Positions 13,734 through 39,122 of a DNA stretch of 64,000 nt are shown here, in pieces; the first letter of the stretch is position 1, and each line of letters begins with the position of its first letter. The DNA is from Candidatus Terraquivivens tengchongensis. Lineage in GTDB: Archaea; Thermoproteota; Nitrososphaeria_A; Caldarchaeales; Wolframiiraptoraceae. The notes under the pieces were generated by a model, which did no database searches, was not told the DNA's origin, and was given only the letters and a program-made list of their open reading frames with translations. The stretch spans positions 19,113 to 83,112 of the forward strand of contig JALNJZ010000006.1 in the NCBI GenBank assembly GCA_023261845.1, given 5' to 3'. The translations under genes were made by a program, and so were the position numbers.

Positions 13734-13762
13734 GAGTTAAAATAAAAATGTTTGGAATTATT

Positions 13763-16069: not shown

Positions 16070-16073
16070 CTCG

Positions 16074-19304: not shown

Positions 19305-19369
19305 AATCGGAACCACAATACTGTAAAGACCCAAAACACCTTTTATCCTACTTTTTTGTTTACAAGTAT

Positions 19370-20122
19370 ATGCGAAAAGTAAGGGTCCTAGTAGTTCTTC
19401 CCATATTGAAGAATCCTGCTTTGGAGGAAGTTACGCGAAGAGAAATCGAGCAAATCCGAGATGAAAACCTTGAGGTGAGCTTGGTCAGCTTAGAACAAGG
19501 GCCGGCCTCTATTGAGTCAGAATTTGATGACAGGATAGCATCGCCTTGGGTTCTGGAGAAGGTTAAGGAAGCTGAGGTTAATGGTTTTGATGCCGTGTTC
19601 CTGGATTGTATGGGAGATATAGCCCTGAATGCTGCAAAGGAAATCGTGAGAATACCCGTGATCGGTCCGTGTCAAGCTACGATGGCGATGGCGTCGATGC
19701 TCGGTGATAGGTTCTCGGTGATCACTATCTTAGAGAACGTAGTCCCACTTTTTTGGAGAAAGGCCAGAGAATATGGTTTCATACAAAACCTTGCATCGGT
19801 AAGGTCCGTGGAGGTGCCTGTGCTCGAGTTGGATACGAAGAGAGAGTTAGTTAAGGAGAAGTTGGTCGAGGAATCAAAGATTGCGATAAAGGAAGATGGT
19901 GCTGATGTGATAATCTTAGGATGTACAGGGATGGTAGGTATGGCAAAAGACGTTCAGGAAGTTGTAGGCGTACCGGTCATAGACCCGGTACCGGTATCGA
20001 TAAAGCTCGCCAAACTCATGGCGGAACTTAGGCTCATCCATAGTCGCAAAGCCTATCCAAAACCACCATCTAAGCTGAGAAAGTTCCCGGGGATGTCGGA
20101 GCTGCTACTCGAGAAAATTTAA
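19370..20122 (+). CDS. Asp/Glu/hydantoin racemase family protein
   Basis: Two-lobed pattern VLVVLPI...FDAVFLDCMGD...GADVIILGCTGMVG. The ATG at 19370 was chosen. The long 5' extension of the six-frame ORF overlaps the previous gene. Confidence 0.6.
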   Translation: MRKVRVLVVLPILKNPALEEVTRREIEQIRDENLEVSLVSLEQGPASIESEFDDRIASPWVLEKVKEAEVNGFDAVFLDCMGDIALNAAKEIVRIPVIGPCQATMAMASMLGDRFSVITILENVVPLFWRKAREYGFIQNLASVRSVEVPVLELDTKRELVKEKLVEESKIAIKEDGADVIILGCTGMVGMAKDVQEVVGVPVIDPVPVSIKLAKLMAELRLIHSRKAYPKPPSKLRKFPGMSELLLEKI

Positions 20123-20145
20123 CACCAATCCAATTTTTTGAGGCA

Positions 20146-21780
20146 TTACTTTGATGCTTTGCTGAGCTCCTCTTCCCTCAAAAGCCTTCTATGAACCTTA
20201 CCCGCAGACGTCAGAGGCAGCTCCTTTCTGAACTCCACCTCCCTCACAAGCTTGTACGGCTCCAGTCTTTCCTTCAGGAAGTTGATCAGCTCGTCCGCCG
20301 TCAGCTGGGCTCCGTCCTTCAACACAACAAATGCTTTTGGCACCTCACCCGCAACCGGGTCGGGCTTGCCAACGACCGCGCAAAGCTTCACGGCTGGATG
20401 TTCGTATATGACATCTTCGACCTCCCTCGGGTATACTGAATAGCCTTTATGTTTGATGAGGTCCTTCTTCCTGTCGACGATGTAGAAGTATCCGTCTTCG
20501 TCCATCTTTGCCACGTCGCCCGTGTATAGCCAGCCGTCCCTCAGCACCTCCCTAGTCTCTTCGGGCCTCTTCCAGTAGCCTAGCATGACCTGCGGCCCCT
20601 TTATGACAAGCTCGCCTATCTCTCCGGGAGGTAACGTCTTGCTTCCAGTCTCAAGGTCAACTATCCTTGCATCTACATCAGGCCAGGGTAAGCCGATGGA
20701 GCCTATCTTGACGGATTTCATGCTGGGGTCAACCGGGTTTGTATGCGTTCCAGGTGAGCACTCTGTTAGACCATAGCCTTCCACGAGTACGCCACCTGTA
20801 AGCTGGATGAATTTTCTCTGAACTTCCGGTGGGAGTGGAGAGCCGCCAGATATACAACATCTTATTGACCTGAGGTTATAAGATTGCACCTCAGGTGATG
20901 CAACTATAAGCGCATACATCGTCGGCACGCCACAAAAAACTGTTACACCATAACTCTGAATTGTCTCCAAAACTTTCTTTACGTCAAACTTTTGAAGTAG
21001 AACGATCGTTCCGACAGTATAGATTGGCGCATTCATCGATGTCGTCATCCCGAATATATGGGAGAGTGGTAGCACCGTTAGAAAGACTTCTTTTGCAGGT
21101 CTACATCTTGTCCAGACCGAGAACGCTATAGCATTCGATACCATGTTGAAGTGCGTTAGCATTGCCCCTTTGGGTGTACCCGTCGTTCCTCCAGTATACT
21201 GGAGACAGGCAAGATCCCTCTTCGGATTTATCTCGACTTTTGGTGGTTCCGGAGAGTATTTCGATAACACCACGTCAAACCAATGGTAATTTCCTTCTGG
21301 GAGCTGGGGCGGTTTGTTTGTGTCACCACCTGTTACGAATATTCTCTTAACTTTGGTTGAAGATGCAACCTTAAGAAATGTAGGAAGTAAAGGCTCGTAA
21401 ACGACCAAGCTCTCAGCCTCAGAGTCGTTAAGCTGGAAGAGCAACGTGTTCTCACGTGCCAGCGGGCTTATGGTTGTCACCACACAACCAGCCTTAAGCG
21501 CACCATAGTATGCTATCAAGAACTGCGGCATGTTAGGTAAGAAAAGCGCAACCCTATCACCCCTGGCCGCATCCATGCTGATCAGCACATTTGCGAAGCG
21601 GGATGCTAATTCGTTCAGCTCACGATACGTCAACCTATACCCATTCTCGCCAGAAACGACCGCGATCTTTTCCGGATAGGCCGAGGCGGAGCGCTCCAAC
21701 AGACCATGAAGCGGCATCTCTGGATAATCTATAGACCTAGGTACGCCTTCGGGGTAGAACCTGTACCAGGGCCGATCCAT
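20146..21780 (-). CDS. AMP-dependent acyl-CoA synthetase/ligase
   Basis: AMP-binding motif YTGGTTGTPKGAMLTH. GYGLTE. C-terminal conserved Lys region. Confidence 0.85.
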   Translation of the reverse strand: MDRPWYRFYPEGVPRSIDYPEMPLHGLLERSASAYPEKIAVVSGENGYRLTYRELNELASRFANVLISMDAARGDRVALFLPNMPQFLIAYYGALKAGCVVTTISPLARENTLLFQLNDSEAESLVVYEPLLPTFLKVASSTKVKRIFVTGGDTNKPPQLPEGNYHWFDVVLSKYSPEPPKVEINPKRDLACLQYTGGTTGTPKGAMLTHFNMVSNAIAFSVWTRCRPAKEVFLTVLPLSHIFGMTTSMNAPIYTVGTIVLLQKFDVKKVLETIQSYGVTVFCGVPTMYALIVASPEVQSYNLRSIRCCISGGSPLPPEVQRKFIQLTGGVLVEGYGLTECSPGTHTNPVDPSMKSVKIGSIGLPWPDVDARIVDLETGSKTLPPGEIGELVIKGPQVMLGYWKRPEETREVLRDGWLYTGDVAKMDEDGYFYIVDRKKDLIKHKGYSVYPREVEDVIYEHPAVKLCAVVGKPDPVAGEVPKAFVVLKDGAQLTADELINFLKERLEPYKLVREVEFRKELPLTSAGKVHRRLLREEELSKASK

Positions 21781-21844
21781 TTTATTCTAAAAGAAAGAAT
21801 TAGCGCACTATATAAGCTTAAGACGGGGTCGCTTTTTTATCCCG

Positions 21845-21891
21845 AATTAGTTCAGCACCGCAGAAATTTTTTTCCAGCATGCTGAACTAAT
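21845..21891. promoter_or_regulatory. Perfect 13-bp inverted repeat (AATTAGTTCAGCA...TGCTGAACTAATT) upstream of the acyl-CoA synthetase gene, next to a TATA-like element (21810-21820)
   Basis: Read directly. The arms are 21845-21857 and 21879-21891. TTATATA lies about 32 nt upstream of the acs ATG on the minus strand. Confidence 0.3.
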
Positions 21892-22007
21892 TACTCTATA
21901 TACTCTAAGAACGAGTACCAATCAATACTTAATTATCAATTAGGGCGAGCATGGGTATAATGCAAATGCTTGGTTTAACTAAATCATAATCCTAAATGGG
22001 CATTTTG

Positions 22008-22490
22008 TTAATATTTGATGCTGATGTACAAAAGAACGACGAGTGCCGCAAATGTGAATAGGTCGGGCAATAATGCAAACGGTCCCAGACCGAACGGCCT
22101 AAACCCGCAAGCCCACATTATCAAAGGGTTAGAGGTAAGGGCGTATAGGAACAAGATTACCGAAAATATTATCAGCCCGACAGTAAACTCAGACCTAGTT
22201 TTTCTGTATATGTCAACGTACACTATCAGCAAGAAGATTAAAAGAGCTATGTTGACAGTTGAGACAACAGTCTTCGCTATGTAGAAAAACTCTATGTCTC
22301 CTGGGATGACGTACAGATGAAATCTAGGACGCCATGCAAGCTGGAAATACCAAAGCGTAGATGCCATCCACATAATAATCAACATTACAGCTATCACAAG
22401 AATTGGCAGAAGTATGAATAATAACCAAGCCGTAGATCTTTGGCTCATTTTATCATTCATTTGCATCACCCCCTTTTCTACTTTTTCCAA
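22008..22490 (-). CDS. Membrane protein, hypothetical
   Basis: 160 aa with four hydrophobic helices. Overlaps the upstream wHTH regulator gene by 13 nt. Confidence 0.5.
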   Translation of the reverse strand: MEKVEKGVMQMNDKMSQRSTAWLLFILLPILVIAVMLIIMWMASTLWYFQLAWRPRFHLYVIPGDIEFFYIAKTVVSTVNIALLIFLLIVYVDIYRKTRSEFTVGLIIFSVILFLYALTSNPLIMWACGFRPFGLGPFALLPDLFTFAALVVLLYISIKY

Positions 22491-22780
22491 ATTTTCCTCA
22501 CAATCTCTTCAAACAAGGCATAATTCTCCTCCATAATAGGGGATAAAAAATACGTAGTACCATAACCTTCTCCCGTAGACACTACCAAGTTGTTCCTTTC
22601 GAGGACCTCAAGGTGGTGCCTTATCGTTCTGTAGTCCATTTTGAGCCTATTCGCCAGCTGGTTCGCATTCTGCGGAGCTTCTTTTAATGTCATGAGTATC
22701 TTCGCTCTCGTCAATCCGCCTCTCGTGCCTGCAATCAACCAGCCGAGCAAATACTTCAGAGGGTGTGCTTCACCTGACAT
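22478..22780 (-). CDS. Winged-helix transcriptional regulator (ArsR/PadR-like)
   Basis: 100 aa. GGLTRAKILMTLKEAPQNANQLANRLKMDYRTIRHHLEVLERNNLV shows an HTH-plus-wing pattern. Confidence 0.55.
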   Translation of the reverse strand: MSGEAHPLKYLLGWLIAGTRGGLTRAKILMTLKEAPQNANQLANRLKMDYRTIRHHLEVLERNNLVVSTGEGYGTTYFLSPIMEENYALFEEIVRKIWKK

Positions 22781-22904
22781 TTATGCAATCCAGCTTTGGT
22801 TGAAGCTTACATCATCCTGATTATAAACATGCTCCCCATTTCTGAATTTGGAAATGAATTGGAGTTAATTTTGGAAAACGCTTTAATTCGAACGGGCCGT
22901 TAGC

Positions 22905-26687: not shown

Positions 26688-26993
26688 TTACCTATGTGTT
26701 GTCGCTTTTTTAATTGCCTCTATAGCCTGATCAACCGTTAACATAGGAACTACTTCAAAGTGAGCGTAGGGCATCCACGTAAGCAAGCGGGTGAAGAGTT
26801 CCGCTTCGTTTGCTGCTTCGCTAATTGTGTATCCGAAATCTCCACCTGCAGCCATTCCCCAGTCCTTCGTTACTCCAGCGTTCAAACTTGCTTTAACCAT
26901 ATCAAGCATTGAAAGCCAGACTTTAGCCCTTTGTTCAGCGTCAACTGGCACCTTAGTCGGCTCCAGCCACCATTTCACATAAAATTTGGTCAC
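26688..26993 (-). CDS. Small conserved hypothetical protein
   Basis: 101-aa ORF with good coding composition. Confidence 0.4.
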   Translation of the reverse strand: MTKFYVKWWLEPTKVPVDAEQRAKVWLSMLDMVKASLNAGVTKDWGMAAGGDFGYTISEAANEAELFTRLLTWMPYAHFEVVPMLTVDQAIEAIKKATTHR

Positions 26994-27145: not shown

Positions 27146-27161
27146 TGCGGGGGTGGGATTT
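27146..27161. repeat. Distal att repeat copy of the integrated element (duplicate of the tRNA-Leu 3' end)
   Basis: TGCGGGGGTGGGATTT matches 38545-38561 (TGCGGGGGGTGGGATTT) at 16/17 with a one-G indel. That sequence is the 3' acceptor/T-stem region of the tRNA-Leu gene. Confidence 0.6.
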
Positions 27162-27358
27162 CAGCATTAATTTACCGGTAAATTATCTCTTATCTTCTTT
27201 GTCACCGTTTTTGGCGCTATCTCGATAAAATAACTTTTTCGGTAAAACATGCTCATAAAAGGTTACTATCCAAACGCTGAACTTATAGTTTTATGTTAAC
27301 CTTCTAGGTTTTGTCGGCTGTGGCCTGCATGCAAATTGATTATCTGGCGATCTAGATT

Positions 27359-27769
27359 TTGAAAAAATTTTTTAAAGATTTTGATGGTTTGTTTTTTAGG
27401 GTTGCTCGCAGGTATTTGGGTGGTGTTAGGGACGTGGATGTGGTTGTTATGGTTGATGATTTGACGCTTGTTGATGGAGATTCGCCTCTAGCCTATAAAG
27501 CGCCTGAGGGTAGCGAGTGGGGTAAACAGAAATTTTCCAGTGAGGTTTTGGAGAGGGCTAGGGCTGTTAATGAGAGGTTTTTGGAGAAGAAGCTTAGGAA
27601 TGGGCGGTATGGTGAGGTTTATTTGGCTATGGGGAAACAGTATGCCGCGGCCCTGCCAGACTTGGCAAAATACGGTGTGAAAGTGGTTTTTCCAACTAGC
27701 GGCGGACCCGGACCAAAAGCACAAGCACTAAAACAATGGATTTTGAGGGAAGAATCTAATGAGTTTTGA
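27359..27769 (+). CDS. Hypothetical protein, first cargo gene of the island (TTG start; start uncertain)
   Basis: 136-aa ORF with extreme G+T-rich composition. Ends 11 nt inside the MTase gene start. Contains VVFPTSGGPGP. No family recognised. Confidence 0.4.
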   Translation: MKKFFKDFDGLFFRVARRYLGGVRDVDVVVMVDDLTLVDGDSPLAYKAPEGSEWGKQKFSSEVLERARAVNERFLEKKLRNGRYGEVYLAMGKQYAAALPDLAKYGVKVVFPTSGGPGPKAQALKQWILREESNEF

Positions 27770-30728
27770 GAGGTTTGTAGAAGAGAAGTTGCCATTAACT
27801 CTTTTGAATAAGCTTAGTGCTAAAGAGTCGGGTTTTATTCGGATTCCAAAAATTCATAATATCCATACGTGGTTTGCTAGGAGGCCAGCTGGCGCTGCTC
27901 GTGCATTGACTTTAGCGGCTGTATTGCCGAAACATGTTGAGGAGAATATTTACAATAAGATTTCGTCTCTGGTAGATGCTGAAAGATTAGATAAAGTAAT
28001 TTATATTGTTAACCCAGACAGGGATACTATTAATAGTAAATTGAAAAGTTTCATCGGTAAAAGCGCAAAGGATGTTGTTGTTTGTGATCCTATGGCTGGT
28101 GGTGGCAGTATTCCTCTTGAGGCTTTGAGGCTTGGTTTTAGGACTATTGCGGTTGAGTATAATCCTGTTGCCTATCTGGTTTTGAGGGCTTCTGTGGAGT
28201 TTCCAGCCAAATATGCTGATTCGGGGCTTTTTGAAGAAACATTGAAGGCTTCTAAAGAGTTTGTTAGTAGGGCTAGAGAAGAGCTTGGCAAGTATTATGG
28301 TGAGGATGCTGAGAACTACATTTTTGCTCGTGGTGTGAGGTGTCCATTCTGTGGCGGGCTTATTCCAATTCAGGGGATTGAACCGGCGATAACTAAGGCG
28401 CCGAGGTTCAAGAAAAGGTTCTTGAAAATAACTTATGACAAGGAGAAGAAGACTTTCTCTGCTGAAACAACAGATAAAGCCATAGCATCTGGAACCATTG
28501 CTAAACGTGGAAACAATATTAAATGTCCTTACGATGGCTGTGGAAAATGGTTCCAACTACGTGGGCAAGCGAAAGGAGAAACAACAGCCTTTGACCAATG
28601 GTTTTACGAACATGCAAAAATGATGGAAAGCATCGTTGAGGGTTTCGCTCCAATTACTGGCGAGCTTGAAGAGAAAATGCTTAACCTACACATTTCACTG
28701 GTAAAGCAGGTTGGCAACAGTTTTCAAGCAATATGGGACGAAAGAATAGAAAAAGGAAAGTTTGTGGATGCTTTGCATGCTCTTAGCAATGAGCTTTTAG
28801 AACTTCAAAACTACATCCCTCTGGACGAGATTTCGGCGGATAACGTTTGGGCTAGCACTGCGGTAAGCAAGGGATTGACGAAGTGGTATATGCTCTACAA
28901 CCCAAGACAACTACTGGCCATAGCGAAACTATCAAAAATTGTGGCTGAAACCGCCGAGAAACTAACTTCAAAAGATGGAGAGTTTGGAGCAGCAGTAGCC
29001 ACATACATTGCATTGGCGTTAGACAAGATAATAGACTACAACACTATAGCCACCCATTGGCAAGGAACAGGCTTTAAAACTGGTATTGCACACACTTTGC
29101 GGGGTGAGAGCACCCTTGACTTCAGAAAAGAATACTGCGAAATAAAACGTGTAGACGAAGCATTGATGTGGACTTTGGAACCTGATGTCGCTGAATCAGA
29201 CGTTCTAACAAAAACAACTGGTGGGGTTCTCCCAGTATTAAAATTCCTCTGCGATGAGTTTAGAAGCGCAGATGCTAAAGAAAAGGTAAACGTCTATTTG
29301 GGTGATGCCACTCAGCTTTCTTCCATTTTAGGCATAAAATCTATTGACCTTATTAATGTTGATCCACCCTACTTCGAGCAGGTAATATATAGCGACAGAA
29401 GCGAGTTCTTCTGGGTTATACTCCGCAGATCCCTAGCTCCAGCCCTAGAACTCTTATTCAAACCAAACCTCAAACTCTCCAATTGGACATGGACAAGCCC
29501 CACAGTGCCAAGAGAAAGAGAAGTTGTAACCTACGACAAAGAAGACACGCAGGGAAGATTCCGCAAATTCTTCACCGACTTCATAACAGAAACCTCAAAA
29601 GTCCTAAAAGACGACGGAGTCCTAACCCTCTGGTTCACGCATCCCACAGCACTAGCATGGCGGGTTGTCAGCGAATCCCTATACCAAAACGGCTACGTAG
29701 TCCCAAAAGTCTGGCCCCTACAAACAGAAATGAAAACCCGCTACAAAAAACACGTAAACATAGTAGCTCAAGAAATGAGCCTAGTAATAGTAGGCCGCAA
29801 ATACCCACGCCAAAAACTACTGGAAGTGTCGCCCCAAGACGTTAAGGGAAGCCTTATGGAAAACCCCCTATTCACAAAGACAGTTGAAGAAACAGTAGAA
29901 GACACAAGAAAAATAATCATGGAAGCAAACGCCTCCCCAGCCGACACAGCCGCCCTAATGTTCGGAACAGCCCTCAGCGTAGCCTCCCGCTTCGAACTAC
30001 CAATAGGCGCAACCTTCACAGACCTATACGACACAGCCATAACCGCCGTAATATCAAGATACACAGAACCCCTAATCTACAAGGTGCTAACCCAAATAGG
30101 ACCCCAAAAACTAGACGAAAATACAGCCCAAAAAATAGCCAAAAATATAGCCCAAGCCATGCTATGGGACCCAGCAACCCGCTCATACCTGACGTTATGG
30201 CTAATATCCCGCGTAGACCTCGCCACAGCAAAAATACGCCAAGAACCCTTAGGCTTGCATTTTGACCTCGTCCAAACAGTAGGCAAACTATGCGGCTTCG
30301 GCATAGAAAACCTAAAACACTACAGCCTCATAACAGAAAAAACCATAAACAAAACAGGAAAAGCCTACTACCCCCAATTCCTAGAAATGCTAACCCTACC
30401 AGGCGGACAAACCTACCCAGACAGACTAATGCAGGTAGCCCCAGGATTGGCGACAATCCTAGCCCGCATGGCCATGACAGAAAGCGGAGACCCAGCAGCC
30501 AGAGCAAAAACCATAAAGGCGAAAATGAGCATGCACAGCGACAGAGAACTCTCAAGCTGCGCCGCCCTAGCCACAATCCTACTAGAAACCGCACGCGACC
30601 AAGACTTAGGCTATAGAATAACAGACAAAACAAAAATAACAGGATACTTCCCAGGCATGGACGAAAGCGAAATAGCAAAACTCGTAAGAGAATTAGCTAT
30701 AAAAACCCTAACACACTTAGTCTTTTAA
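27759..30728 (+). CDS. DUF1156-type N6-adenine DNA methyltransferase with inserted Zn-ribbon (PglX/PglXI-like)
   Basis: HTWFARRP at aa 36-43 is the DUF1156 N-terminal hallmark. SAM motif I VVCDPMAGGGSIPLEA at aa 108-123. Cys4 ribbon CPFC (aa 195-198) and CPYDGC (aa 256-261). Catalytic motif IV NVDPPYF at aa 533-539. SD-like GAGGG lies 11 nt upstream of the ATG. Confidence 0.8.
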   Translation: MSFERFVEEKLPLTLLNKLSAKESGFIRIPKIHNIHTWFARRPAGAARALTLAAVLPKHVEENIYNKISSLVDAERLDKVIYIVNPDRDTINSKLKSFIGKSAKDVVVCDPMAGGGSIPLEALRLGFRTIAVEYNPVAYLVLRASVEFPAKYADSGLFEETLKASKEFVSRAREELGKYYGEDAENYIFARGVRCPFCGGLIPIQGIEPAITKAPRFKKRFLKITYDKEKKTFSAETTDKAIASGTIAKRGNNIKCPYDGCGKWFQLRGQAKGETTAFDQWFYEHAKMMESIVEGFAPITGELEEKMLNLHISLVKQVGNSFQAIWDERIEKGKFVDALHALSNELLELQNYIPLDEISADNVWASTAVSKGLTKWYMLYNPRQLLAIAKLSKIVAETAEKLTSKDGEFGAAVATYIALALDKIIDYNTIATHWQGTGFKTGIAHTLRGESTLDFRKEYCEIKRVDEALMWTLEPDVAESDVLTKTTGGVLPVLKFLCDEFRSADAKEKVNVYLGDATQLSSILGIKSIDLINVDPPYFEQVIYSDRSEFFWVILRRSLAPALELLFKPNLKLSNWTWTSPTVPREREVVTYDKEDTQGRFRKFFTDFITETSKVLKDDGVLTLWFTHPTALAWRVVSESLYQNGYVVPKVWPLQTEMKTRYKKHVNIVAQEMSLVIVGRKYPRQKLLEVSPQDVKGSLMENPLFTKTVEETVEDTRKIIMEANASPADTAALMFGTALSVASRFELPIGATFTDLYDTAITAVISRYTEPLIYKVLTQIGPQKLDENTAQKIAKNIAQAMLWDPATRSYLTLWLISRVDLATAKIRQEPLGLHFDLVQTVGKLCGFGIENLKHYSLITEKTINKTGKAYYPQFLEMLTLPGGQTYPDRLMQVAPGLATILARMAMTESGDPAARAKTIKAKMSMHSDRELSSCAALATILLETARDQDLGYRITDKTKITGYFPGMDESEIAKLVRELAIKTLTHLVF

Positions 30729-30747
30729 ATAGAAAGAGGCAGTAGCC

Positions 30748-33700
30748 TTGAAAACCATAGGCCAAATTTTCCAACTGAAAGAATCCCTTCTAGAAATAAA
30801 GTCAGAACTAACACCAAGCTTCGACGAAGTAATAAGAAGCTACCTAGGCCAACATGTAAAAACAAAATTCAAAGACCCCGCCTACACAACAGAAATCACA
30901 TACCCTACACCTCCACTCCAAACCTTCATCAAAAGAATCCTTGAAGGCCTAACAATACCAACAGTTCAAGGCACATACCTAATAAGAGGATTCGGCTTCG
31001 GAAAAACCCACGCCATAATACTCCTCTGGCACATGCTAAACTCAAAAGAAGGAGCAAACTCCCAACTAGCCAAACAATTCGGCCTAAAAGAAAACATAGC
31101 CCAAGAAACCCTAGCCCTAGGAATAGACTTCAGCAAAGAACAACCCTTCCCCCACCTATTCAACCAGCTAGAAGCCATAGCAAAAAGACAACCAGAACAA
31201 TGGCAAATAAAAGACCCAAGGCTTTCCCAAGCCATAATAGAAGTAACCAGAGAAATAAGCAGAACCAAAGCCCTAGCCCTACCCTCAGAAGAACTCGCAA
31301 ACCTAATAATCAAAATACTAGAAAAATATAGGGAAGCGAAAGCTAATCCGAGGCTTCTACTCCTAATAGATGAACTTGGAATAGGAATAATCAGCAGACT
31401 TACAAGCTACATAGAAACCCAAAACGAGGAAAAATACGGCGAAATCGAATACATAACCAACTTCATAGAACAACTCTACACAAAACTAAGCGGAAAAGGC
31501 ATACCAGCCTACATCATAGTCGCCCTCGCAGAACAAGACATCAGAGAAATAGACCACATATACCTCCAACAAGCAGACAAACCCATAATCCAAACAAAAA
31601 TAGACGGCCTAAGAAAACGCCTCAACATCCTAAAAGAACGACTAAGCAGAGCAGTCGGGGGCCTAGGCGAAGAAGCTGCACTATCCTATGACCCAGAACA
31701 CGCCATAAACATAGCAAAACACAGAGTCTTCAAAAAAATCGAAGAGGAAAAAGACATAGAAAAAACCCTAATAGCATACCTAACTCTACAAGCCCAACAA
31801 TACAACCTCCAAGAAACCTTCGAAACCTACAAAGAACAAATCAAAAACTACTATCCGCTTTCCCCAAGCATGATTTGGCTGTTCCGGAAAATCCTAAACC
31901 CCTACGACGCTCCTGGAACAGAATACGTAAGAACAACCCTAAACATACTCGCAGAAGCCGCCGAAAACGCCCTAACATACGAGCCCCACAAGTCGCTAAC
32001 CGTAAGCGCAAAACACCTCTCCATAGGACGGGCAGGCGTAATCGACCTCATGGGAGACTTCGAAGCAGAATGGGCCAGCACAGCCTCAGACATAGAACAC
32101 GCCATAAAATCAGCAAATCCAGAAATACAAAAAGCCGTAGACATAGTCGCCAAACAAATACTTGCAAAAGGCACAACAGCCAACGTTACAGCCCTCATAG
32201 AAGTAAGAGACATAAAAGAAATCAAAAGATACGCCGTTTCACCAGAAGAAATGCAAATAGACATACTAACCACGCTACCCTCAGAAGAAGCAACCAAAAC
32301 CATAACACAACTCCAAGAGGCCATAGAATACCTAAAAACACAAAGCGCAAGAATCGAAGAAAAAGAACATGAAAAACAAAAATTCTATCTGCCATCCCCA
32401 ATGAGAACAATCTACGACAAACTTGCAGCCTTTGTAGCAGAACACAAAAGGATACTTGAAGAACCAACCCAATTACCAGGATACCTACAACAAGCAAACC
32501 TGCCTAGCCTCCTATACAGCCCAAAAGCAGCAATACCATCAAGAGAAAAAGAAGTCACAATACTTCTAAAGGAATACAACACTGTCACAAATGCTGAAGA
32601 ACTCATAAACAGTGTGGACGTAAGAGATGCTCAAAACGAAGGAAACCTCTCCATAATAGTTGTCCCACCATGGGACGCCTTTCTCTTCAACGAACTCTAC
32701 CAAAGAAAAACAGACTACCATACCCTCACAAACACAATAGCCCAAAAACTCCAAAGCATAAATCTGGCAGGAAAAATCAGCCACCCCTTACACCTATTAG
32801 TCCTCATACCAAACATAAACCAAGACAAACTGACACGACTAATAGACGACGTAATATCATACGCAGCCGTAAAAGACTTCATCAAACACCTCGAAAACAA
32901 AGAAAAAATCCTAGAAGAAAAAATGTATGACTACGAAAGAACCGTCAAAAAGAGACTCACACTAAGGCTAACAGAGTTCTTAGAAGAACAACGCAAAAAA
33001 CTCGAGATAAGCCTTAAAAGCTCCATAGAACGACAAGTAAGAGACGCCAGATCATCCGCCCAAAAAGAACTCATAAAACTAACACGAAAAATAGCCACAA
33101 GTGCAATAGAACTCTACGAAGACGTAATCTATTACAGCCTACAATCCCAAAACTTCACAGCTCAAAGCCTAATCAAACTCTTCGGTGAACTATCCGGAGA
33201 AGCCTCAAAACTAGAACAAAGCGGAAAATCCTCCCTGTCAGAATACTCTCTAATCGTAAACATGTTCTTCAGAAGAGTAACAGAATCCACAGGATTCTCA
33301 TGGGAGCCAGACACCATAGCAGAAGCCATATACAAACACTACAAGGCAGAAATTGAAAGTGGAGTAATCCGAAAACAAGACAGGATAAACGAAATAGTTG
33401 AAAACTCACTTCTCGGCACATACGAAGTAAAACCACTAAGCTCTAAAGTAGTTCAAGAAGCCATCCAAAAACTAAACGGCAAAACAATAGAAGCTGAAAA
33501 CAAAAAAGTAACATTAAAAGTCGACGAAAAAACCAACCGGATAATCTTTAAAATAGAGGAAATAAAGCCGCCAGAAATAATAACAGAAGAAAAACCCACC
33601 GAAATACCACCAGAAGAAATACCCGTTCCAACAGAAGACCGCCCCGCAATTGCTGAAAAAACCCTTGGAGAAGTCATAATCGAAGTAGACCAAAACTTCA

Positions 33701-34011
33701 ATTATGAAGATTTCAAACAAAAATTAGACTCACTTTATCAAACCTATGGAACACTAATAAGCTCCATAAAAATCGGGACAAGCGGAAACTTCATCAGAGT
33801 AACTTTTGACTTCCTAGGTTCAAAACACTCAACCACCACAATTATTAGCGCAGCAAGATTCCTCAGACAAATCTCAAACATGTATAAGGCCACCCCGCAA
33901 CTTGAAATCAAGTTCACAAGCCCACTTCCAGAAGAGAAGCTCCAAGAAATACTCGGCTCATTCTTCACTAAAAAAGTGAGAAGAAGCTGGGATCGACTTC
34001 TACCGAGTTAA
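30748..34011 (+). CDS. Large P-loop NTPase, DUF499/COG1483-like (BrxC/PglY-like), TTG start
   Basis: 1087 aa. Walker A GFGFGKTH at aa 81-88. Walker B LLLLIDELG with D208/E209. Long alpha-helical C-terminal two-thirds and a Pro/Glu-rich linker (aa about 930-960). The gap from the MTase gene is 19 nt. Confidence 0.65.
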   Translation: MKTIGQIFQLKESLLEIKSELTPSFDEVIRSYLGQHVKTKFKDPAYTTEITYPTPPLQTFIKRILEGLTIPTVQGTYLIRGFGFGKTHAIILLWHMLNSKEGANSQLAKQFGLKENIAQETLALGIDFSKEQPFPHLFNQLEAIAKRQPEQWQIKDPRLSQAIIEVTREISRTKALALPSEELANLIIKILEKYREAKANPRLLLLIDELGIGIISRLTSYIETQNEEKYGEIEYITNFIEQLYTKLSGKGIPAYIIVALAEQDIREIDHIYLQQADKPIIQTKIDGLRKRLNILKERLSRAVGGLGEEAALSYDPEHAINIAKHRVFKKIEEEKDIEKTLIAYLTLQAQQYNLQETFETYKEQIKNYYPLSPSMIWLFRKILNPYDAPGTEYVRTTLNILAEAAENALTYEPHKSLTVSAKHLSIGRAGVIDLMGDFEAEWASTASDIEHAIKSANPEIQKAVDIVAKQILAKGTTANVTALIEVRDIKEIKRYAVSPEEMQIDILTTLPSEEATKTITQLQEAIEYLKTQSARIEEKEHEKQKFYLPSPMRTIYDKLAAFVAEHKRILEEPTQLPGYLQQANLPSLLYSPKAAIPSREKEVTILLKEYNTVTNAEELINSVDVRDAQNEGNLSIIVVPPWDAFLFNELYQRKTDYHTLTNTIAQKLQSINLAGKISHPLHLLVLIPNINQDKLTRLIDDVISYAAVKDFIKHLENKEKILEEKMYDYERTVKKRLTLRLTEFLEEQRKKLEISLKSSIERQVRDARSSAQKELIKLTRKIATSAIELYEDVIYYSLQSQNFTAQSLIKLFGELSGEASKLEQSGKSSLSEYSLIVNMFFRRVTESTGFSWEPDTIAEAIYKHYKAEIESGVIRKQDRINEIVENSLLGTYEVKPLSSKVVQEAIQKLNGKTIEAENKKVTLKVDEKTNRIIFKIEEIKPPEIITEEKPTEIPPEEIPVPTEDRPAIAEKTLGEVIIEVDQNFNYEDFKQKLDSLYQTYGTLISSIKIGTSGNFIRVTFDFLGSKHSTTTIISAARFLRQISNMYKATPQLEIKFTSPLPEEKLQEILGSFFTKKVRRSWDRLLPS

Positions 34012-34023
34012 AAGGGAAGATCC

Positions 34024-35439
34024 TTGACAGAATTAGAAGAAAAAATCCAAAAAACATTCGGAGAAGTAGCCGTCAACAAAGGATTAGCCCTACGCCACGA
34101 AGTTGCAAGACTACCACGCTTCATATCCGAATACCTAATATCCAAATACTGCGCCGCATACCCAGACTGCGAAACAGCCTTCAGCAAACTCGCCGAAGTA
34201 GTAGCAGAAAACTTCCCAGAACCCAAAGACAAAGACCGAGTATTCTACAAGCTAAAACGTCTAGGCATAGTCCAATTAATGGACGAGTTCAAAGTAAGCA
34301 TTGACCTAAAAAGAAACCTATACCTCTTACACATACCATGCCTACAAATTTACGACGCACTGGCTGACGAAGGAATAGTCAGAAAATTTGAAAGAACACT
34401 ATCCGGAATGTGGGGCCTAGGAACACTAGAATATCGTCCAGACTTACCCGAAAACATGGACGAAACCCTCTCACCAATCCTGCTAATAGACATAGAACCC
34501 TTCCAAGTCTATAACATTGATGTTAAGGGCTTTATCGAGAACCGCCAAAAATTCACATTGGACGAGTGGATAGATCTAATAATAACAACAATTGGGCTAA
34601 ACCCCAACGCCTATTCTCCCAGACAGAAACTTTTGCAGCTAGCAAGACTAATCCCCCTCATAGAAGCAAACGTCAATCTTATGGAGTTAGGACCAAGAGC
34701 CACAGGAAAAACATATCTTTACAGGAATCTATCCCACTACACTCGCATATACTCTGGAGGTGCAATAAGTCCAGCTCGACTCTTCTTTGACGCCAGATTA
34801 CGATTGGTTGGAGATATAGCAACACATGACCTTGTTGCATTTGATGAAGTAAGCAGAATCAGATTCACAAACCCAGATGAAATGGCTGGAAAACTAAAAG
34901 ATTTTATGGTTGATGGTTTCTTTGAACGTGGCACCCTAAAAAGAGCCCATAGCGGTTGTTCTATAGTATTTCTCGGAAACATCGAAAAAGAAGAAGGCAT
35001 ACCAATTAAAGAAATAAGATACGCTCTGCCCGATATTATGCAAGATTCAGCGTTTCTGGACAGAATACACGGTCTCCTACCAGGCTGGGAAATGCCTAAA
35101 ATAATGAAAAGTGAAGAACACTTGGCCCAAGGAATAGGGTTAGCGGCAGACTATTTCGCGGAGATAATTCATGAACTGAGAAAAGAAAGCTTTAGAGATG
35201 TAATAAACGCCCATGTAGAGTTTGGAAGCAGCTTCACAATAAGGGATGAAAATGCTGTCCGAAAATTAGCTTCAGGACTAGTTAAACTACTATTCCCAAA
35301 TCGAGAATTCAATAACAATGAACTAAGACAAGTGCTCAATTTAGCAGTAGAAATGAGACAGTACATTGTAGACGAATTAAGTGAGATGTCACCCGTTGAA
35401 TTTCCGCGCAAACGTCTAGAGGTAAAAGTGAAAGGATAA
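34024..35439 (+). CDS. Lon-related AAA ATPase, BrxL-like (N-terminal ATPase module only, no protease domain)
   Basis: 471 aa. Walker A GPRATGKT at aa 223-230. Walker B DLVAFDEVSRI. Size and organisation resemble the COG4930/BrxL-family ATPase domain. The gap to the previous gene is 12 nt. Confidence 0.55.
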   Translation: MTELEEKIQKTFGEVAVNKGLALRHEVARLPRFISEYLISKYCAAYPDCETAFSKLAEVVAENFPEPKDKDRVFYKLKRLGIVQLMDEFKVSIDLKRNLYLLHIPCLQIYDALADEGIVRKFERTLSGMWGLGTLEYRPDLPENMDETLSPILLIDIEPFQVYNIDVKGFIENRQKFTLDEWIDLIITTIGLNPNAYSPRQKLLQLARLIPLIEANVNLMELGPRATGKTYLYRNLSHYTRIYSGGAISPARLFFDARLRLVGDIATHDLVAFDEVSRIRFTNPDEMAGKLKDFMVDGFFERGTLKRAHSGCSIVFLGNIEKEEGIPIKEIRYALPDIMQDSAFLDRIHGLLPGWEMPKIMKSEEHLAQGIGLAADYFAEIIHELRKESFRDVINAHVEFGSSFTIRDENAVRKLASGLVKLLFPNREFNNNELRQVLNLAVEMRQYIVDELSEMSPVEFPRKRLEVKVKG

Positions 35440-35441
35440 GA

Positions 35442-36260
35442 ATGATGGTTAATTTTACAAGCGAACTTGAAGCTATAGTTAAAACGGCATCAACCCTCAG
35501 CAACATGCCCGTAGAAGTATTCCACAGAATAATATTTTGCTCTTTCATAAAAGCTGGTCTATCAATTTACGGAGCCCAAAAAGAACAAGAAATAGAATTA
35601 GAAAACCTAATTAAAACCGTTGCTGCGCCATACCGTGGACTAGTGAATGGAAAATTATATTTGAGCGCCCTCCGCTTTGTAAAAACTTTTAACACTCTTT
35701 TAAAAAACAGCAAACGTGCAACTATACTTAAAGAGGCAGATCTTCAATATATCCTAAAATTTCTTGAAAATAAGATTGGTAAAGTTGACACCGTGTTTGT
35801 TCTCGACTGCGCATCAATCCCAGAAATCATAGCAATAGCAAGTAAATTTTCTGCTTCAAGGCGTAATACAACATTCTATGAAGAAGTTTTCATAAATCCC
35901 GTTGGCATTACGCGTTTTCTAACCGGGCAGCTTGAATCATTCAATCGCGAAAGCTACCTAGTGCAGTATGCAAAACTGTTAAAGGAAAGACTAAACGCCA
36001 ACTTCTTTACAAAAATCTCAAAGGTAGATCTTATAACACATCAGCACGGTTACACGTTAGATGGCTTTCTAAAATCCATCGAAATGCAGAAATTATTTGA
36101 CCACATAAGCCATTTCGCAAAACAAAGCTCCGTGCTTATCACGTCAGACCACGGATATGACGTAGTCGCAGATGAGCATGGACTTTATATAACACATGGT
36201 TATAAAAAGGAATGCCCACTAAATTTCAGCAGAATAGCCCTATTCCTCGTAATCGACTGA
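35442..36260 (+). CDS. Small protein with alkaline-phosphatase-superfamily-like motifs (candidate mini PglZ-like domain)
   Basis: 272 aa. FVLDCASIPE (D122-C123) and VLITSDHGYDVVADEHGLYITHGY (S235-D236-H237-G238) resemble the Asp/nucleophile and DHG metal-ligand blocks of the AP/PglZ fold. The gap to the previous gene is 2 nt. This is inference only. Confidence 0.35.
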   Translation: MMVNFTSELEAIVKTASTLSNMPVEVFHRIIFCSFIKAGLSIYGAQKEQEIELENLIKTVAAPYRGLVNGKLYLSALRFVKTFNTLLKNSKRATILKEADLQYILKFLENKIGKVDTVFVLDCASIPEIIAIASKFSASRRNTTFYEEVFINPVGITRFLTGQLESFNRESYLVQYAKLLKERLNANFFTKISKVDLITHQHGYTLDGFLKSIEMQKLFDHISHFAKQSSVLITSDHGYDVVADEHGLYITHGYKKECPLNFSRIALFLVID

Positions 36261-36271
36261 GGGGACCAAAA

Positions 36272-36784
36272 ATGGAACACAGCTACTACCTAATCTTCAA
36301 GACCAAAAAGAAAGGAAGCGAAATATCCTTCAACGTCGGGACCAAAGAAAAAACCACAACATTACTCAAATTCAGGGGACGCCGTACCGAAGAAATATTT
36401 AACAAAATTCTCAAGGCTCTAAGCAAAGTAGGATGCATAACACCCCTTCAAACGGGCAATCCTAGCGTATATTACGTAAGAGATGATGTAGGTCCAGTTT
36501 TAGGCACTTATCTCATTCTTATTCGGCGTGCACAAAAAATCGATTATTGGATAACCTTTTTAGATGAATTACTAACAGGTAAATATGCGAGACTCGGGGA
36601 AACATTCTCAACATTACTTGAGTCATCTATAGAATTGTCAAAAGCAACAATTTCAAAAAGCCAAAGGAAAGAATACACACTTTCACCTGTTATCGTTTCC
36701 TCTTTTTCATCGGCACTTAAAGTACTGGTCAAAAGGTTAAAATCATACGAAACTGAGCCCCCCGCTAAAACGTTTCATCATTAA
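36272..36784 (+). CDS. Hypothetical protein, last cargo gene of the cassette
   Basis: ATG at 36272 with SD-like GAGGGGA 8 nt upstream. An alternative ATG at 36212 overlaps the previous gene. No family recognised. Confidence 0.4.
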   Translation: MEHSYYLIFKTKKKGSEISFNVGTKEKTTTLLKFRGRRTEEIFNKILKALSKVGCITPLQTGNPSVYYVRDDVGPVLGTYLILIRRAQKIDYWITFLDELLTGKYARLGETFSTLLESSIELSKATISKSQRKEYTLSPVIVSSFSSALKVLVKRLKSYETEPPAKTFHH

Positions 36785-36911
36785 ATCTATAGCGTGTAGC
36801 GACATTAAAGTAAAACAGAAATGTTCTGTTAGTTGCATCTAAGCGAAAGATAGATTCCGCGATGGGTTTAGTTGATTTTAAGGTTCTTGAGGAGAGGCTA
36901 CCACTTTTGAC

Positions 36912-37968
36912 TTAAAAGTTGTAGTTTTTCGAGTGTTTTTGCTGGTTTAGGTTTGGAGAGAAGCCTAAATCTTGCTTGAAAATAAACTTGGATTTTTGGT
37001 TGTTTAAAAGAGGTGTTAAAATCCCCAATTTTGGTATACATGCCAAATATGTTTTTCTTAGTTCTTCTTTGTCTATGTGGTGGTATATGTCTATGGCTTC
37101 CCTGCGCCGGTCGCCTCTAAGCTCCTTCACGTATTCGCGGGGCATGTCGTTCCGTAAAAGCCAGGTTGTGAACCAGTGCCTGAAACAGTGGGGGCCGAAG
37201 TGGTCTTCTAGGCGGGGTGAGTTTGGGTTGTGGAAGCCAAGGCGCTTCGCGTATTTGACTATGGCTGTGTATAGGCCGTTTCTATCCAGCCTCCCAAGGC
37301 TTTGGTAACTTATGAAAAGCGCCTTTGTAGGCGGGTTCAGTTTCTCCCTAACCCTAAGCCACCTTTTAAGCGCGGCTGCGCATTCCTCATCAAAGAAAAC
37401 CGTGCGGTTGCTTCTTTTAGGCGTGGGCTTAAGCGTAATGGAATACTCAGCCCAATTTATGTCCTCAACATCAAGCCTCAAAAGTTCGCCCCTTCTTATT
37501 CCAGTCTTCGCCAGTAGCACTGCTATGGCTTTGTCCCTTGGATCCAAAATGGAGTTTACCAGTCGGCTCATCTCCTCAACGCTTAAAAGCCTCCGCTCAG
37601 GATCGTCATAGCCATCCTTATAGCGCTTAAGATACCGTTTTCTGAAGGGCAGAACAATGTTGCTGGTGATGTAGCCCTCAAAGGCCAAATAATCGTAAAA
37701 GGCTGAAAGCGCAGAAAAATAATTCTCAACAGTCTTATGCTTTGCGTTCATAAACCACGTGCTGGAGAAAGTCCCTAAGCACCTTAACATCCACGTCACT
37801 TATGCTGAAACCTCGGCTTTCAAGAAATTCCATAAATATCTTCAGGCTTGAAACGTATCTTCTTATGCTTTCCTCGGTCATGCCCCTAAGCCTACAGTCT
37901 CGGCTGAAACCCTCAACCAGAACCCATGAGTTTTGAAGCGTTTTCAAGCTTAACCCGTCCACCGCCAA
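36912..37968 (-). pseudogene. int: Tyrosine recombinase/integrase (XerC/D-like) disrupted by a single-nucleotide frameshift
   Basis: N-terminal SAM-like domain in one frame (...SLKIFMEFLESRGFSISDVDVKVLRDFLQHVVYERKA*, 37735-37968). The rest is in another frame (KHKTVENYFSALSAFYDYLAFEGYI..., 36912-37799), with catalytic R (GIRRGE), HxxR (HCFRHW) and Y (IDIYHH). Removing one A/T from the run at about 37741-37743 joins them as ...VVYERKHKTVENY... Confidence 0.7.
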
Positions 37969-38522
37969 CCCCTACCCTTATACTCAACCAGCCCATAGGC
38001 TTCAAGGGCTTGAAGCTGCCTGTCAACAGCCCTAACCAAATCAACATCTGACGGATCGATGTTTAGGGCTGCCAAGATTTCCTTCTGCGTGTAAGATCCG
38101 CCCTTCCTCAACAAATCGATAAGGTCCTTGTCAAACTTTCTAACGCCCTCGAAGGTTTCCTGGAGGAAGGGCTGAGCCCTGTAACGCTTAAGCTCATTAT
38201 CCAAGTTCTCCGCCAACCTCTTCAAAAGCCTATTCTCCTCGCGTAGGCTCTTCAACTCCTCCTCGGCGCTGCGTAAACGCTTAACAAGCTCAGCACGGCT
38301 CAAGTAGCCTTCTTCACCCTCCTCACGCCGGATAGAATCCTCAACACGCTCAACAACAAACCTAGAAATCGACACGCCCGCCTTTTCCGCCCGACGCCGC
38401 CAATCCTCAACCATCTCAACAGACGGTAGATAAACATAAACCGCCCGATCCTTAATTGTACACGTCTTACCCCTATTAGGCCTCGTCACACCCACCAACA
38501 AAAATAACACACTTACGAGCAT
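37950..38522 (-). CDS. Coiled-coil plus C-terminal winged-helix protein (putative excisionase/regulator of the element); start uncertain
   Basis: Central heptad-rich region (LVKRLRSAEEELKSLREENRLLKRLAENLDNELKRY). C-terminus ILAALNIDPSDVDLVRAVDRQLQALEAYGLVEYKGRGWRW is wHTH-like. It lies between the integrase and the tRNA. Confidence 0.45.
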   Translation of the reverse strand: MLVSVLFLLVGVTRPNRGKTCTIKDRAVYVYLPSVEMVEDWRRRAEKAGVSISRFVVERVEDSIRREEGEEGYLSRAELVKRLRSAEEELKSLREENRLLKRLAENLDNELKRYRAQPFLQETFEGVRKFDKDLIDLLRKGGSYTQKEILAALNIDPSDVDLVRAVDRQLQALEAYGLVEYKGRGWRWTG

Positions 38523-38544
38523 TTATAATTTACCAGCAAATTAG

Positions 38545-38561
38545 TGCGGGGGGTGGGATTT
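38545..38561. repeat. Proximal att repeat, part of the tRNA-Leu 3' end
   Basis: TGCGGGGGGTGGGATTT. Its partner is at 27146-27161. Confidence 0.6.
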
Positions 38562-38646
38562 GAACCCACGAACCCCTACGGGACAGGGTCTCCCATCATA
38601 AAGGAATCTGAGCCCTGCGCCGTTGACCAGGCTTGGCAACCCCCGC
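38545..38646 (-). tRNA. tRNA-Leu(CAG) with 17-nt intron at 37/38 and long variable arm
   Basis: Folded by hand. Acceptor GCGGGGG/CCCCCGC with discriminator A. 3-bp D-stem GCC/GGC. Anticodon stem CAGGG/CCCTG. Loop CTCAGA[intron TTCCTTTATGATGGGAG]A. Variable arm TCCCGTAGGGGTTC. T-arm GTGGG-TTCAAAT-CCCAC. Confidence 0.8.
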
Positions 38647-38693: not shown

Positions 38694-39122
38694 TTACTTT
38701 AGCGTTTCTAAGGGAGCGTAGACATCTAGCTCGAATTCCGACAGGTGAGCTTTTCCGGAATCGGTCATGACCATGTGGTAGGTTGACTTTGGGGGTAGCT
38801 TTCTCTTTTTTAGACCGGCTTCCCTCACGATATCCTTAGAAACGGGCAGTCCGAGCTGGCCTGGTTCTACAACTATTAGCGGTGAGTCGTAGTCGAAGAA
38901 CGATACGGGAACTCTGCTGTATCCAAGCCCTTTCAGTATGTTGTAGCGGTGGTGTCCGTCCAAGATTACCATGGTTTTGTAATCTACCGCCAAAGATTTC
39001 TTAAGGTACCCATCGCGGAGTATCTCTGCTTTCAGCTCCTCTAAGTGCACTGGGTCTATCTCCTCATGCTCGATAAGCTCGTCTATCCTTACAACCTTCA
39101 CCTGCAAGGGCCGCAGCATCAT
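38694..39122 (-). CDS. ParB/Srx-like nuclease-domain protein
   Basis: 142 aa. ILDGHHRYNILKGLGY matches the ParB-like DGHHR motif. Confidence 0.5.
   Translation of the reverse strand: MMLRPLQVKVVRIDELIEHEEIDPVHLEELKAEILRDGYLKKSLAVDYKTMVILDGHHRYNILKGLGYSRVPVSFFDYDSPLIVVEPGQLGLPVSKDIVREAGLKKRKLPPKSTYHMVMTDSGKAHLSEFELDVYAPLETLK

Follow-up and report, generated by a model that had tools for sequence, protein, structure and literature searches.

A two-sided strand skew that changes sign within a methyltransferase gene of a mobile, predicted BREX-related cassette of thermophilic archaea

The element and its insertion site

We analysed a stretch of 64,000 nucleotides from Candidatus Terraquivivens tengchongensis (GenBank assembly GCA_023261845.1, contig JALNJZ010000006.1, positions 19,113 to 83,112 of the forward strand), called the window below and numbered from its first letter. 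The window contains an integrative element of 11,383 bp with an operon that we read as a defence cassette related to bacteriophage exclusion (BREX) systems. The plus strand of this element changes from G+T-rich to A+C-rich inside a single DNA methyltransferase (MTase) gene, and all skew of the window falls within the element. A first-pass annotation of the same DNA had noticed the reversal and attributed it to a mosaic origin or an internal inversion. We consider it on balance probable that the anomaly is the footprint of a strong and long-lasting strand-asymmetric transition bias carried by the mobile cassette. The features of the locus are given below, where AC3 stands for the fraction of A or C at third codon positions.

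27162..38544, unstranded: integrative element, 11,383 bp, with defence cassette, integrase and regulator
27146..27161, unstranded: attL, 16-nt direct repeat TGCGGGGGTGGGATTT, copy of the tRNA 3' end
27164..27186, unstranded: left 23-nt inverted repeat with core TAATTTACCGGTAAATTA, just inside the element end
27359..27769, plus: orf136, conserved small first gene of the cassette, G/T-ending codons
27759..30728, plus: DUF1156-type N6/N4 DNA methyltransferase, 989 aa, holding both change points of the skew
30748..34011, plus: P-loop ATPase, 1087 aa (BrxC/DUF499-like), the most skewed gene (AC3 0.87)
34024..35439, plus: BrxL (Lon-like BREX protein), TIGR02688 at 1.1e-142, Pfam BrxL_N and BrxL_ATPase
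35442..36260, plus: conserved cassette gene, 272 aa, moderately A/C-ending (0.63-0.64)
36212..36784, plus: conserved cassette gene, 190 aa, moderately A/C-ending (0.63-0.64)
36912..37799, minus: tyrosine recombinase (integrase), recognised from its translation, unskewed (AC3 0.53)
37950..38522, minus: coiled-coil/winged helix-turn-helix (wHTH)-like gene, 190 aa, G/T-ending (AC3 0.26), weak HTH_5 match
38525..38547, unstranded: right 23-nt inverted repeat, mate of the left copy, just inside the other element end
38545..38646, minus: intron-containing tRNA gene, 102 nt, the integration target; its 3' end (38545-38561) is attR

The direct repeat that flanks the element (16/17 nt) is the 3' end of the intron-containing tRNA gene, which matches Rfam RF00005 with 42.5 bits (gathering score 29) and was missed by ARAGORN both in the window and in the empty-site genome. 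The two copies of the 23-nt inverted repeat are 87% complementary and are the only two matches in the window, where none would be expected by chance; judged from their sequence and position, they probably serve as integrase binding sites flanking the attP core. Related loci are labelled L001 onward throughout. The conspecific genomes L021 and L027 carry the insertion, with an identical integrase gene annotated Phage_integrase, whereas L022-L026 are empty, the window genes 26688-26993 and 38694-39122 lying just 300 nt apart. The empty site of L022 aligns to both junctions at 98-99% identity. With integrase, repeats of the tRNA 3' end and empty site all present, this is a tRNA-integrating tyrosine-recombinase element. 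Since nearly identical genomes differ in whether they carry the insertion, the skew was not made at this chromosomal position but came with the element; insertion is recent, and the skew predates it and dates from the element's earlier life. An identity as plasmid or virus was rejected, because no contig showed a terminal overlap and the viral collection held neither relatives nor an attP junction.

Gene content of the cassette

The MTase matches Pfam DUF1156 (2.3e-7) and PADLOC MTase_II/HmaB (1e-40); its match to NCBIfam DUF1156_antiphage (3.9e-29) lies under the curated cut-off, and that to PglXI is weak (2e-6). BrxL scores 475.9 bits against TIGR02688, for which the cut-off is 329.3. The ATPase gave zero matches in Pfam, NCBIfam, PADLOC or PDB sequence searches, and a distant homologue (37% identical) is labelled DUF499 protein in UniRef. 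The 272-aa and 190-aa proteins gave no family match in profile searches, and for the former neither Pfam nor PDB returned a sequence match and the AlphaFold single-sequence model was unusable (predicted local distance difference test score 36.8).

Taken together, these profile matches mark the operon as a predicted BREX-related defence cassette. It does not appear to be canonical BREX: BrxL is predicted, but no cassette protein matched PglZ, BrxA or BrxB profiles at E≤10, and the MTase is by its profile not of the PglX type. In the portion of PMC12839542 that describes them, DUF499-centred BREX-related systems share a tripartite core of DUF499 ATPase, N6-MTase and helicase. The cassette resembles the systems outlined there in its large N6/N4 MTase, its BrxC/DUF499-like P-loop ATPase, BrxL, the island setting and the integrase. 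It differs in that profile searches found no helicase gene in the cassette, BrxL occupying that place, as well as in the DUF1156-type MTase and the undetected PglZ, BrxA and BrxB. No compositional peculiarity is mentioned in that portion of the paper.

The first gene, orf136, is 5'-truncated. Its homologues open with a conserved RLLILGPSFRRRR segment in the protein alignment, homology to all other loci begins at 27379, and the start codon is now a TTG adjoining the element end. Two T6 runs lie inside 40 nt at this start.

Composition of the two arms

The reversal had originally been counted in 100-nt samples. A recount gives G35 C12 T36 A17 at 27401-27500 (earlier G37 C13 T32 A18), A40 C30 T14 G16 at 30101-30200 (earlier A37 C30 T17 G16) and again 16 G at 29401-29500; the claim stands, and the anomaly is genuine and larger than first stated. 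In sliding windows GC skew is +0.36 at 27.25 kb and has dropped to -0.36 by 30.75 kb; AT skew climbs from -0.21 to +0.52. This is the only strong asymmetry in the 64 kb; elsewhere both skews stay within about ±0.2 on a 2-kb scale. Put most simply, it is a keto/amino skew, the plus strand being G+T-rich on the left and A+C-rich on the right. The A+C content per 500 nt is 0.500±0.030 outside the element (n=105) and reaches a minimum of 0.41 (z=-3.0) and a maximum of 0.71 (z=+6.8) inside it.

Most of the signal lies at third codon positions. These are G 0.33, T 0.39, A 0.20 and C 0.09 in orf136, where AC3 in sliding windows is 0.13-0.28, and A 0.53, C 0.33, G 0.06 and T 0.07 in the ATPase gene. 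As had been suspected, flanking chromosomal genes are unskewed: the 53 other open reading frames (ORFs) of the window have an AC3 of 0.494±0.052. A three-segment likelihood model on third positions, which improves the log-likelihood by 282 relative to a single segment, has its change points at nt 28469 and 29423 and divides the skewed region as follows.

27359..28469, plus: left arm; plus strand G+T-rich, third positions 74% G/T (AC3 0.26), from the three-segment model and sliding windows
28470..29423, plus: middle zone; neutral and recombination-mosaic, AC3 0.56, ending just past DPPY and the conserved AGCGAGTTCTTCTGGG
29424..34300 (right end approximate), plus: right-arm core; plus strand A+C-rich, third positions 78-100% A/C (AC3 0.87)

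One 60-codon window of the right-arm core is 100% A/C-ending, with zero G/T-ending codons. The switch had been placed at 28.5-29.35 kb, close to the DPPY motif. That interval proves to be the neutral middle segment, after which the A/C-rich regime begins; the proximity to DPPY is correct, since the regime starts about 50 nt past the DPPY codons (29361-29372). The end coordinate of 34100 was too short. Skew fades along the BrxL gene (AC3 0.96 to 0.62) and continues more weakly (0.6-0.7) from about 34.3 kb to 36784, and an A+C-rich plus strand returns at the minus-strand gene 37950-38522.

The sign change alone would also be expected from an internal inversion within the island. This alternative is refuted already, and we give it practically no chance: the 989-aa MTase ORF is intact and collinear along its full length with the unskewed homologues of L003 and L018, so that synonymous-site composition changes at the switch and sequence order does not.

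The skew follows the DNA strand

All genes of the operon share one strand, and coding-strand bias, as recognised from the start, cannot explain the sign flip. The related loci show which rule applies: all nine verified genes in which a coding-strand rule and a DNA-strand rule disagree follow the DNA strand. In left arms, minus-strand genes are A/C-ending (AC3 0.82 in the L005 GmrSD_N/HNH gene, 0.70 in the L001 integrase, 0.77 and 0.85 in two genes of L033), and plus-strand genes are G/T-ending, as seen for orf136 in every locus and for the L031 GmrSD gene (0.30). Right arms are the converse, with A/C-ending genes on the plus strand and G/T-ending ones on the minus strand, namely L004 UvrD (0.20), L012 AbiEi (0.23), the wHTH gene of the window (0.26) and, 12 kb from the flip, the Dam-like MTase of L033 (0.19). 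AbiEi/AbiEii homologues that are oppositely oriented in two right arms have opposite codon skews.

The skew extends to ORF-free DNA and to proteins. In L002, 556 nt without ORFs (15538-16093) have an A+C content of 0.65 and another 942 nt (5135-6076) one of 0.38. In the ATPase, threonine rises from 3.8% to 7.0% in the window (5.5-7.7% in skewed loci), valine falls from 6.8% to 3.9% and leucine TTR codons drop from 37 to 7. Between the ATPases of L003 and the window, 96 replacements lead to A/C-rich codons and 53 in the opposite direction, compared with 71 and 81 in a control pair; for orf136 the numbers are 6 toward A/C-rich codons and 22 opposite. Together with the DNA-strand rule, the skew of non-coding DNA and the shifted protein composition exclude translational or operon-mRNA selection as the main cause and leave ordinary transcription-coupled explanations very strained.

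Selection on the nucleotide content of transcript or DNA, favouring terminator-free unstructured mRNA, NNA and NNC codons or GT-rich 3' tails preferred by RadA, would predict some of what is seen. Between 28470 and 34300 the sense strand is free of runs of five or more T (T5+), of which the antisense strand carries 9.4 per kb and the background about 1.6 per kb. Oligo-T acts as an archaeal intrinsic terminator, and NNA and NNC are the Watson-Crick cognates of archaeal U34 and G34 tRNAs. Yet the 5' genes of the same operon (orf136 and the 5' part of the MTase gene) carry T5+ runs on the sense strand at 6.1 per kb, genes of 'wrong' orientation have the reverse bias (L031 GmrSD, L012 AbiEi, L004 UvrD, the L033 Dam-like MTase and orf136), non-coding DNA is skewed, amino-acid composition is shifted and the native genes of the host have no such codon preference. 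Translational or tRNA selection was rejected on these grounds, and selection in the wider sense, largely refuted by the DNA-strand rule, is highly improbable.

Transcription could act through convergent sense and antisense transcripts with deamination of the non-template strand, or through divergent transcripts from inside the MTase gene with reversed sign. Consistent with this, the skewed domain matches the operon in L017 as in the window, and orf136 and the wHTH gene are promoter-proximal, flanking the same intergenic region in the circular form. With the classical sign, however, antisense transcripts would have to dominate nearly every island gene over 9-13 kb, and their T5+ runs (at the antisense density given above) should halt them; the reversed sign has no known mechanism, and native genes lack the pattern. 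Moreover, the switch shows no conserved promoter-like element and no peak of synonymous-site conservation. The TATA-like GTAATATATAGC of the window is not kept in other loci, for which reason an internal promoter at the switch was rejected, and a scan for B recognition element/TATA patterns found no excess anywhere and zero matches in the element. We regard a transcriptional cause as very unlikely. Two further ideas were discarded: the element contains no G-quadruplex motif, and for long-range pairing of G/T-rich with A/C-rich RNA between the arms the search gave only short inverted matches, none of them compelling.

Distribution among related cassettes

From genome and metagenome collections we gathered 23 related loci, and the two-sided pattern was seen in about 15 related BREX-like cassettes of thermophilic archaea. 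The hosts of these relatives belong to Bathyarchaeia, Thermoprotei, Sulfolobales, Korarchaeota and Fervidicoccus, all of them thermophilic archaeal lineages. AC3 of the ATPase orthologues forms a continuum, with values of 0.49-0.53 in L003, L013, L018, L019 and L020, 0.61-0.63 in L009, L010 and L032, 0.72-0.75 in L007, L008, L011, L012, L017 and L033, and 0.84-0.91 in L001, L002, L004, L005, L006, L014, L015, L031 and the window. The ATPase gene of L016 is mosaic, AC3 dropping from 0.82 to 0.68 within it; the long branch of L016 in the ATPase tree is a frameshift artefact and was disregarded. In skewed loci the orf136 orthologues are G/T-ending (AC3 0.15-0.31), and the strengths of the two arms co-vary between lineages.

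The whole clade is two-sided, down to 61% protein identity, and the profiles superimpose in cassette coordinates: the G+T pole lies at 0-0.9 kb, the sign turns at about 1-2.2 kb and the A+C pole follows at 2.4-5.2 kb. Loci whose flanks differ still have the flip at the MTase gene. Skew is limited to 9-15 kb of island DNA; in L005, the skewed domain (2989-18097) ends at host genes. The islands hold a third-position GC content (GC3) of about 0.4 while that of the hosts ranges from 0.33 to 0.78. The basal or distant relatives L003, L018, L019 and L020 are unskewed. The protein tree puts L018 and L003, which are unskewed, at its base and nests the weakly skewed L013 and L009 within; on the plus strand, the private changes of L013 and L009 are mainly A→G and C→T, pointing to a secondary loss of skew.

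MTase codons of about 500-720, A/C-rich in the window, make up an oppositely signed patch (AC3 0.12-0.33) in two otherwise unskewed cassettes, that of L003 from Sulfolobales (8420-9090) and that of L013 (2230-2900). A shorter G/T patch lies at MTase codons 500-600 of L001, L008, L011 and L016, directly before the A/C regime.

Maintenance of the bias and recombination at the flip

Between the window and L002, A↔C differences occupy 33% of 292 four-fold degenerate ATPase sites. The choice between A and C is near random there (133 identical sites, about 118 expected), and G and T are kept down to 3-10% in both lineages. A↔C transversions are usually slower than transitions. Since they have randomised A and C while G and T are still rare, transitions had ample chance to restore G and T and did not do so. 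The left arm mirrors this: G↔T exchanges (9-15) match transitions (10-14) in frequency, and G+T at four-fold sites is 0.67-0.79. With the favoured pair randomised and the disfavoured pair excluded in both arms, forces of opposite sign acted throughout the divergence of the lineages. These substitution patterns indicate a bias that is actively maintained and not a fossil.

Recombination has nevertheless shaped the zone of the flip. Nucleotide identity of the window to L002 rises from 0.61-0.63 over MTase codons 441-519 to 0.83-0.91 over codons 539-740, and the differences from the closest relative, L015, cluster at 28.9-29.45 kb and then cease. The nearest relative switches about 12 times over 27.4-30.0 kb and is constant (L001/L005) over 30.05-36.4 kb. 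The alignments thus place a recombination junction at about 29.4 kb, where the second change point also falls; crossover may plausibly have occurred in the conserved AGCGAGTTCTTCTGGG stretch that follows DPPY.

The first-pass annotation had proposed that the 5' gene and the N-terminal half of the MTase gene came from one replicon and its C-terminal half plus the ATPase gene from another of opposite replication history. As a description 'mosaic' fits, given the junction; as an explanation of the skew it fails. A fossil junction inside the MTase gene between parts from replicons of opposite replication orientation is favoured by this junction, by the heavily mosaic orf136 and MTase N-terminal half, by the possible crossover point after DPPY, by the patches of opposite sign in L003 and L013 and by recent substitutions that resemble decay (see below). 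On the other hand, a one-off fusion is contradicted by the same profile in cassette coordinates across the clade to 61% identity, by the co-variation of arm strengths and by the randomisation of A↔C in the right arm and of G↔T in the left, with the other pair excluded, as both biases were maintained since the split. We hold such a fossil to be quite unlikely.

Origin of the strand asymmetry

Strand compositional asymmetry is a classic read-out of DNA replication and repair. In single-stranded DNA, hydrolytic deamination affects cytosine and, less strongly, adenine, as in vertebrate mitochondrial DNA. C→T together with A→G on one strand would be the signature of such deamination in DNA that is repeatedly single-stranded, and we infer a mutational force of this type. 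In orf136 and the first ~240 codons of the MTase gene, on the left, damage would fall on the plus strand, making it G+T-rich; on the right, from just past DPPY through the ATPase gene and beyond, damage to the minus strand would render the plus strand A+C-rich. The flip is located in the recombination-mosaic N-terminal half of the MTase gene. On the presumed damaged strand the third-position ratios are about 9 for T/C and about 5 for G/A, values that describe composition and not observed mutations. No dinucleotide context of the skew was detected, and a motif-specific deaminase was rejected for that reason.

The polarity narrows the possible processes. On the plus strand the left arm is C-/A-poor and the right arm G-/T-poor, i.e., C-type changes of the top strand lie on the left and G-type changes on the right, which is the order expected if recurrent breaks or nicks in the MTase zone were resected 5'→3' in both directions. 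Replication forks that converge (a terminus) or two-ended strand-displacement replication of the element could also produce it, as could convergent transcription. An origin at the switch, outward break-induced replication and sense transcription have the opposite polarity, and rolling-circle replication would give no sign change; an origin and rolling-circle replication were rejected on this ground. Gradients are blurred by recombination between alleles: the right arm of the window falls from 0.9 to 0.63, that of L017 is flat or rising, and that of L033 dips and rises again.

Resection is favoured by the position of the flip in the most recombination-mosaic part of the cassette, with the poles flanking that zone, and by its constancy in the cassette although the flanks differ. 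Strong skew 10-13 kb away in L033 and the very high break frequency that would be needed speak against it. For the replication modes, the skewed domain coincides with the mobile island, ending at host genes in L005, the islands hold their GC3 across the hosts' range and the L002 island has a primase-polymerase gene; against them, replication genes are absent from the element of the window, one arm is far longer than the other, the skew does not peak at the ends and the integrase gene is unskewed. A more specific proposal, which we regard as tentative and rather doubtful, is a break or nick hotspot in the specificity half of the MTase gene whose repair by homologous recombination writes the two-sided deamination footprint. 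Each repair would expose kilobases of 3'-ended single strands at hot-spring temperatures.

Several observations weigh against a maintained, deamination-type bias. The support for it consists of composition and substitution patterns. Between the window and the 96%-identical L015, changes polarised with outgroups comprise, on the plus strand, 24 C→T and 10 T→C as well as 11 A→G and 5 G→A, and singletons in nine sequences are mainly A→G and C→T. These changes suggest decay or relaxation in the present hosts; they are soft data, as parsimony and ascertainment bias, composition and constrained ATG/TGG sites push in the same direction. The integrase gene within the element is, as said, unskewed, and the right arm of L033 has an AC3 of 0.50 at the 272-aa gene and of 0.81 twelve kb out, a course that matches no simple gradient of resection or of replication. 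The asymmetric process would have to outweigh other mutation about 5-10-fold, and we know of no precedent in a chromosomal island. Uracil or hypoxanthine in the template stalls the replicative polymerases of archaea (PMC5045986), and a 2026 survey found little strand-specific mutational skew in archaeal chromosomes and plasmids (PMC12999951). Nucleotide-level selection, finally, may formally still serve as an alternative.

Comparison with known asymmetries

In vertebrate mitochondrial DNA, heavy/light asymmetry arises from strand-displacement replication, in which the displaced strand is deaminated. The cassette shares with it the bias of both transitions on one strand (C→T exceeding A→G), a third-position G of about 5%, the dominance of A+C on the sense strand of most genes, a drag on amino-acid composition and a comparable magnitude of the skew. 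It differs in being a 9-15 kb mobile archaeal domain with a sign change inside a gene, in the lack of a replication module in the element of the window and in showing no clearly monotonic gradient. Like the replichore GC/keto skew of bacteria and some archaea, the cassette skew ignores gene orientation and is present at third (synonymous) positions and in non-coding DNA, and the change from a G+T-rich to an A+C-rich plus strand is that of a terminus. Unlike replichore skew, it is local and several-fold stronger, lacks whole-replichore extent (the remaining window is flat) and has a flip that is fixed in the cassette despite differing flanks.

Linear protein-primed genomes of the adenovirus/phi29 kind have a two-armed skew in which the displaced 5'-ended strand is G+T-enriched, and on each arm the cassette agrees with them in sign. 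No protein-primed polymerase accompanies it, however, its skew is not maximal at the ends, its arms measure 1-4 kb versus 9-14 kb and integration is by a tyrosine recombinase. In yeast, bidirectional resection leaves single-switch clusters with C-type and then G-type changes of the top strand (PMC6786661). Polarity, tracts of many kb and a link to homologous recombination are the same; those clusters are single events with a cytosine-specific mutagen, whereas the cassette pattern is an evolutionary near-equilibrium with deamination-type changes of C and A and a putative break site. The cassette skew thus resembles mitochondrial and replichore asymmetry as well as resection-linked strand-coordinated mutagenesis, yet does not fully fit any of these classes. 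For archaeal islands and BREX-type systems, full-text literature searches returned no account of a third-position skew that is local, two-sided and nearly complete.

The locus presents a local asymmetry that equals that of animal mitochondria in strength, flips inside one gene, is kept over saturating divergence and reshapes proteins. If mutational, it would mark a process that leaves one strand of the element exposed as single-stranded DNA much more than is the case elsewhere in the genome, with hotspot recombination, an unusual replication mode and single-strand transfer as candidates, and would allow such processes to be located and oriented in uncultivated thermophiles from sequence alone. 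Should the hotspot proposal be true, the skew profile would be a genomic read-out of archaeal end resection and of programmed recombination diversifying defence specificity, and a natural fixed analogue of 'single-switch' mutation clusters.

Neighbouring genes in related islands and effects on annotation

Several related islands carry genes of DNA replication or repair. In L002, the region 893-6076, 5' of orf136, contains a primase-polymerase gene, a gene for a 633-aa zinc-ribbon protein and the 942-nt gene-free G+T-rich stretch; together these may form the replication module and origin of a plasmid-like element. Directly downstream of the L033 cassette (16139-22888) lie a Mre11-Rad50-NurA-HerA operon and the Dam-like MTase gene, which match the island's GC3 (~0.4) and strand skew, and a copy of the archaeal end-resection machinery appears, by these signs, to travel with this defence island. 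Other islands have RmuC (L005, L031), a Holliday-junction-resolvase-like gene (L031) and UvrD fragments (L004). The cassette of L004 is truncated, with the ATPase from residue 364 on (L004:4490-5536, 9938-13294), and its neighbours are unskewed minus-strand genes, an IS110-family transposase gene (AC3 0.24, strongly G/T-ending) and the fragmented UvrD gene; skewed genes of either sign are thus found outside the cassette too.

The skew has practical effects on annotation. It biases codon-based tests for foreign DNA, and 5.8 kb of sense strand are stripped of oligo-T terminator signals. The T-poor plus strand and A-poor minus strand leave few stop codons in any frame at 29483-32372, and long spurious ORFs arise there (31875-32372, plus; 31902-32324, minus; 30328-30678, minus). 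Gene callers could mis-annotate such stop-poor, skewed regions.

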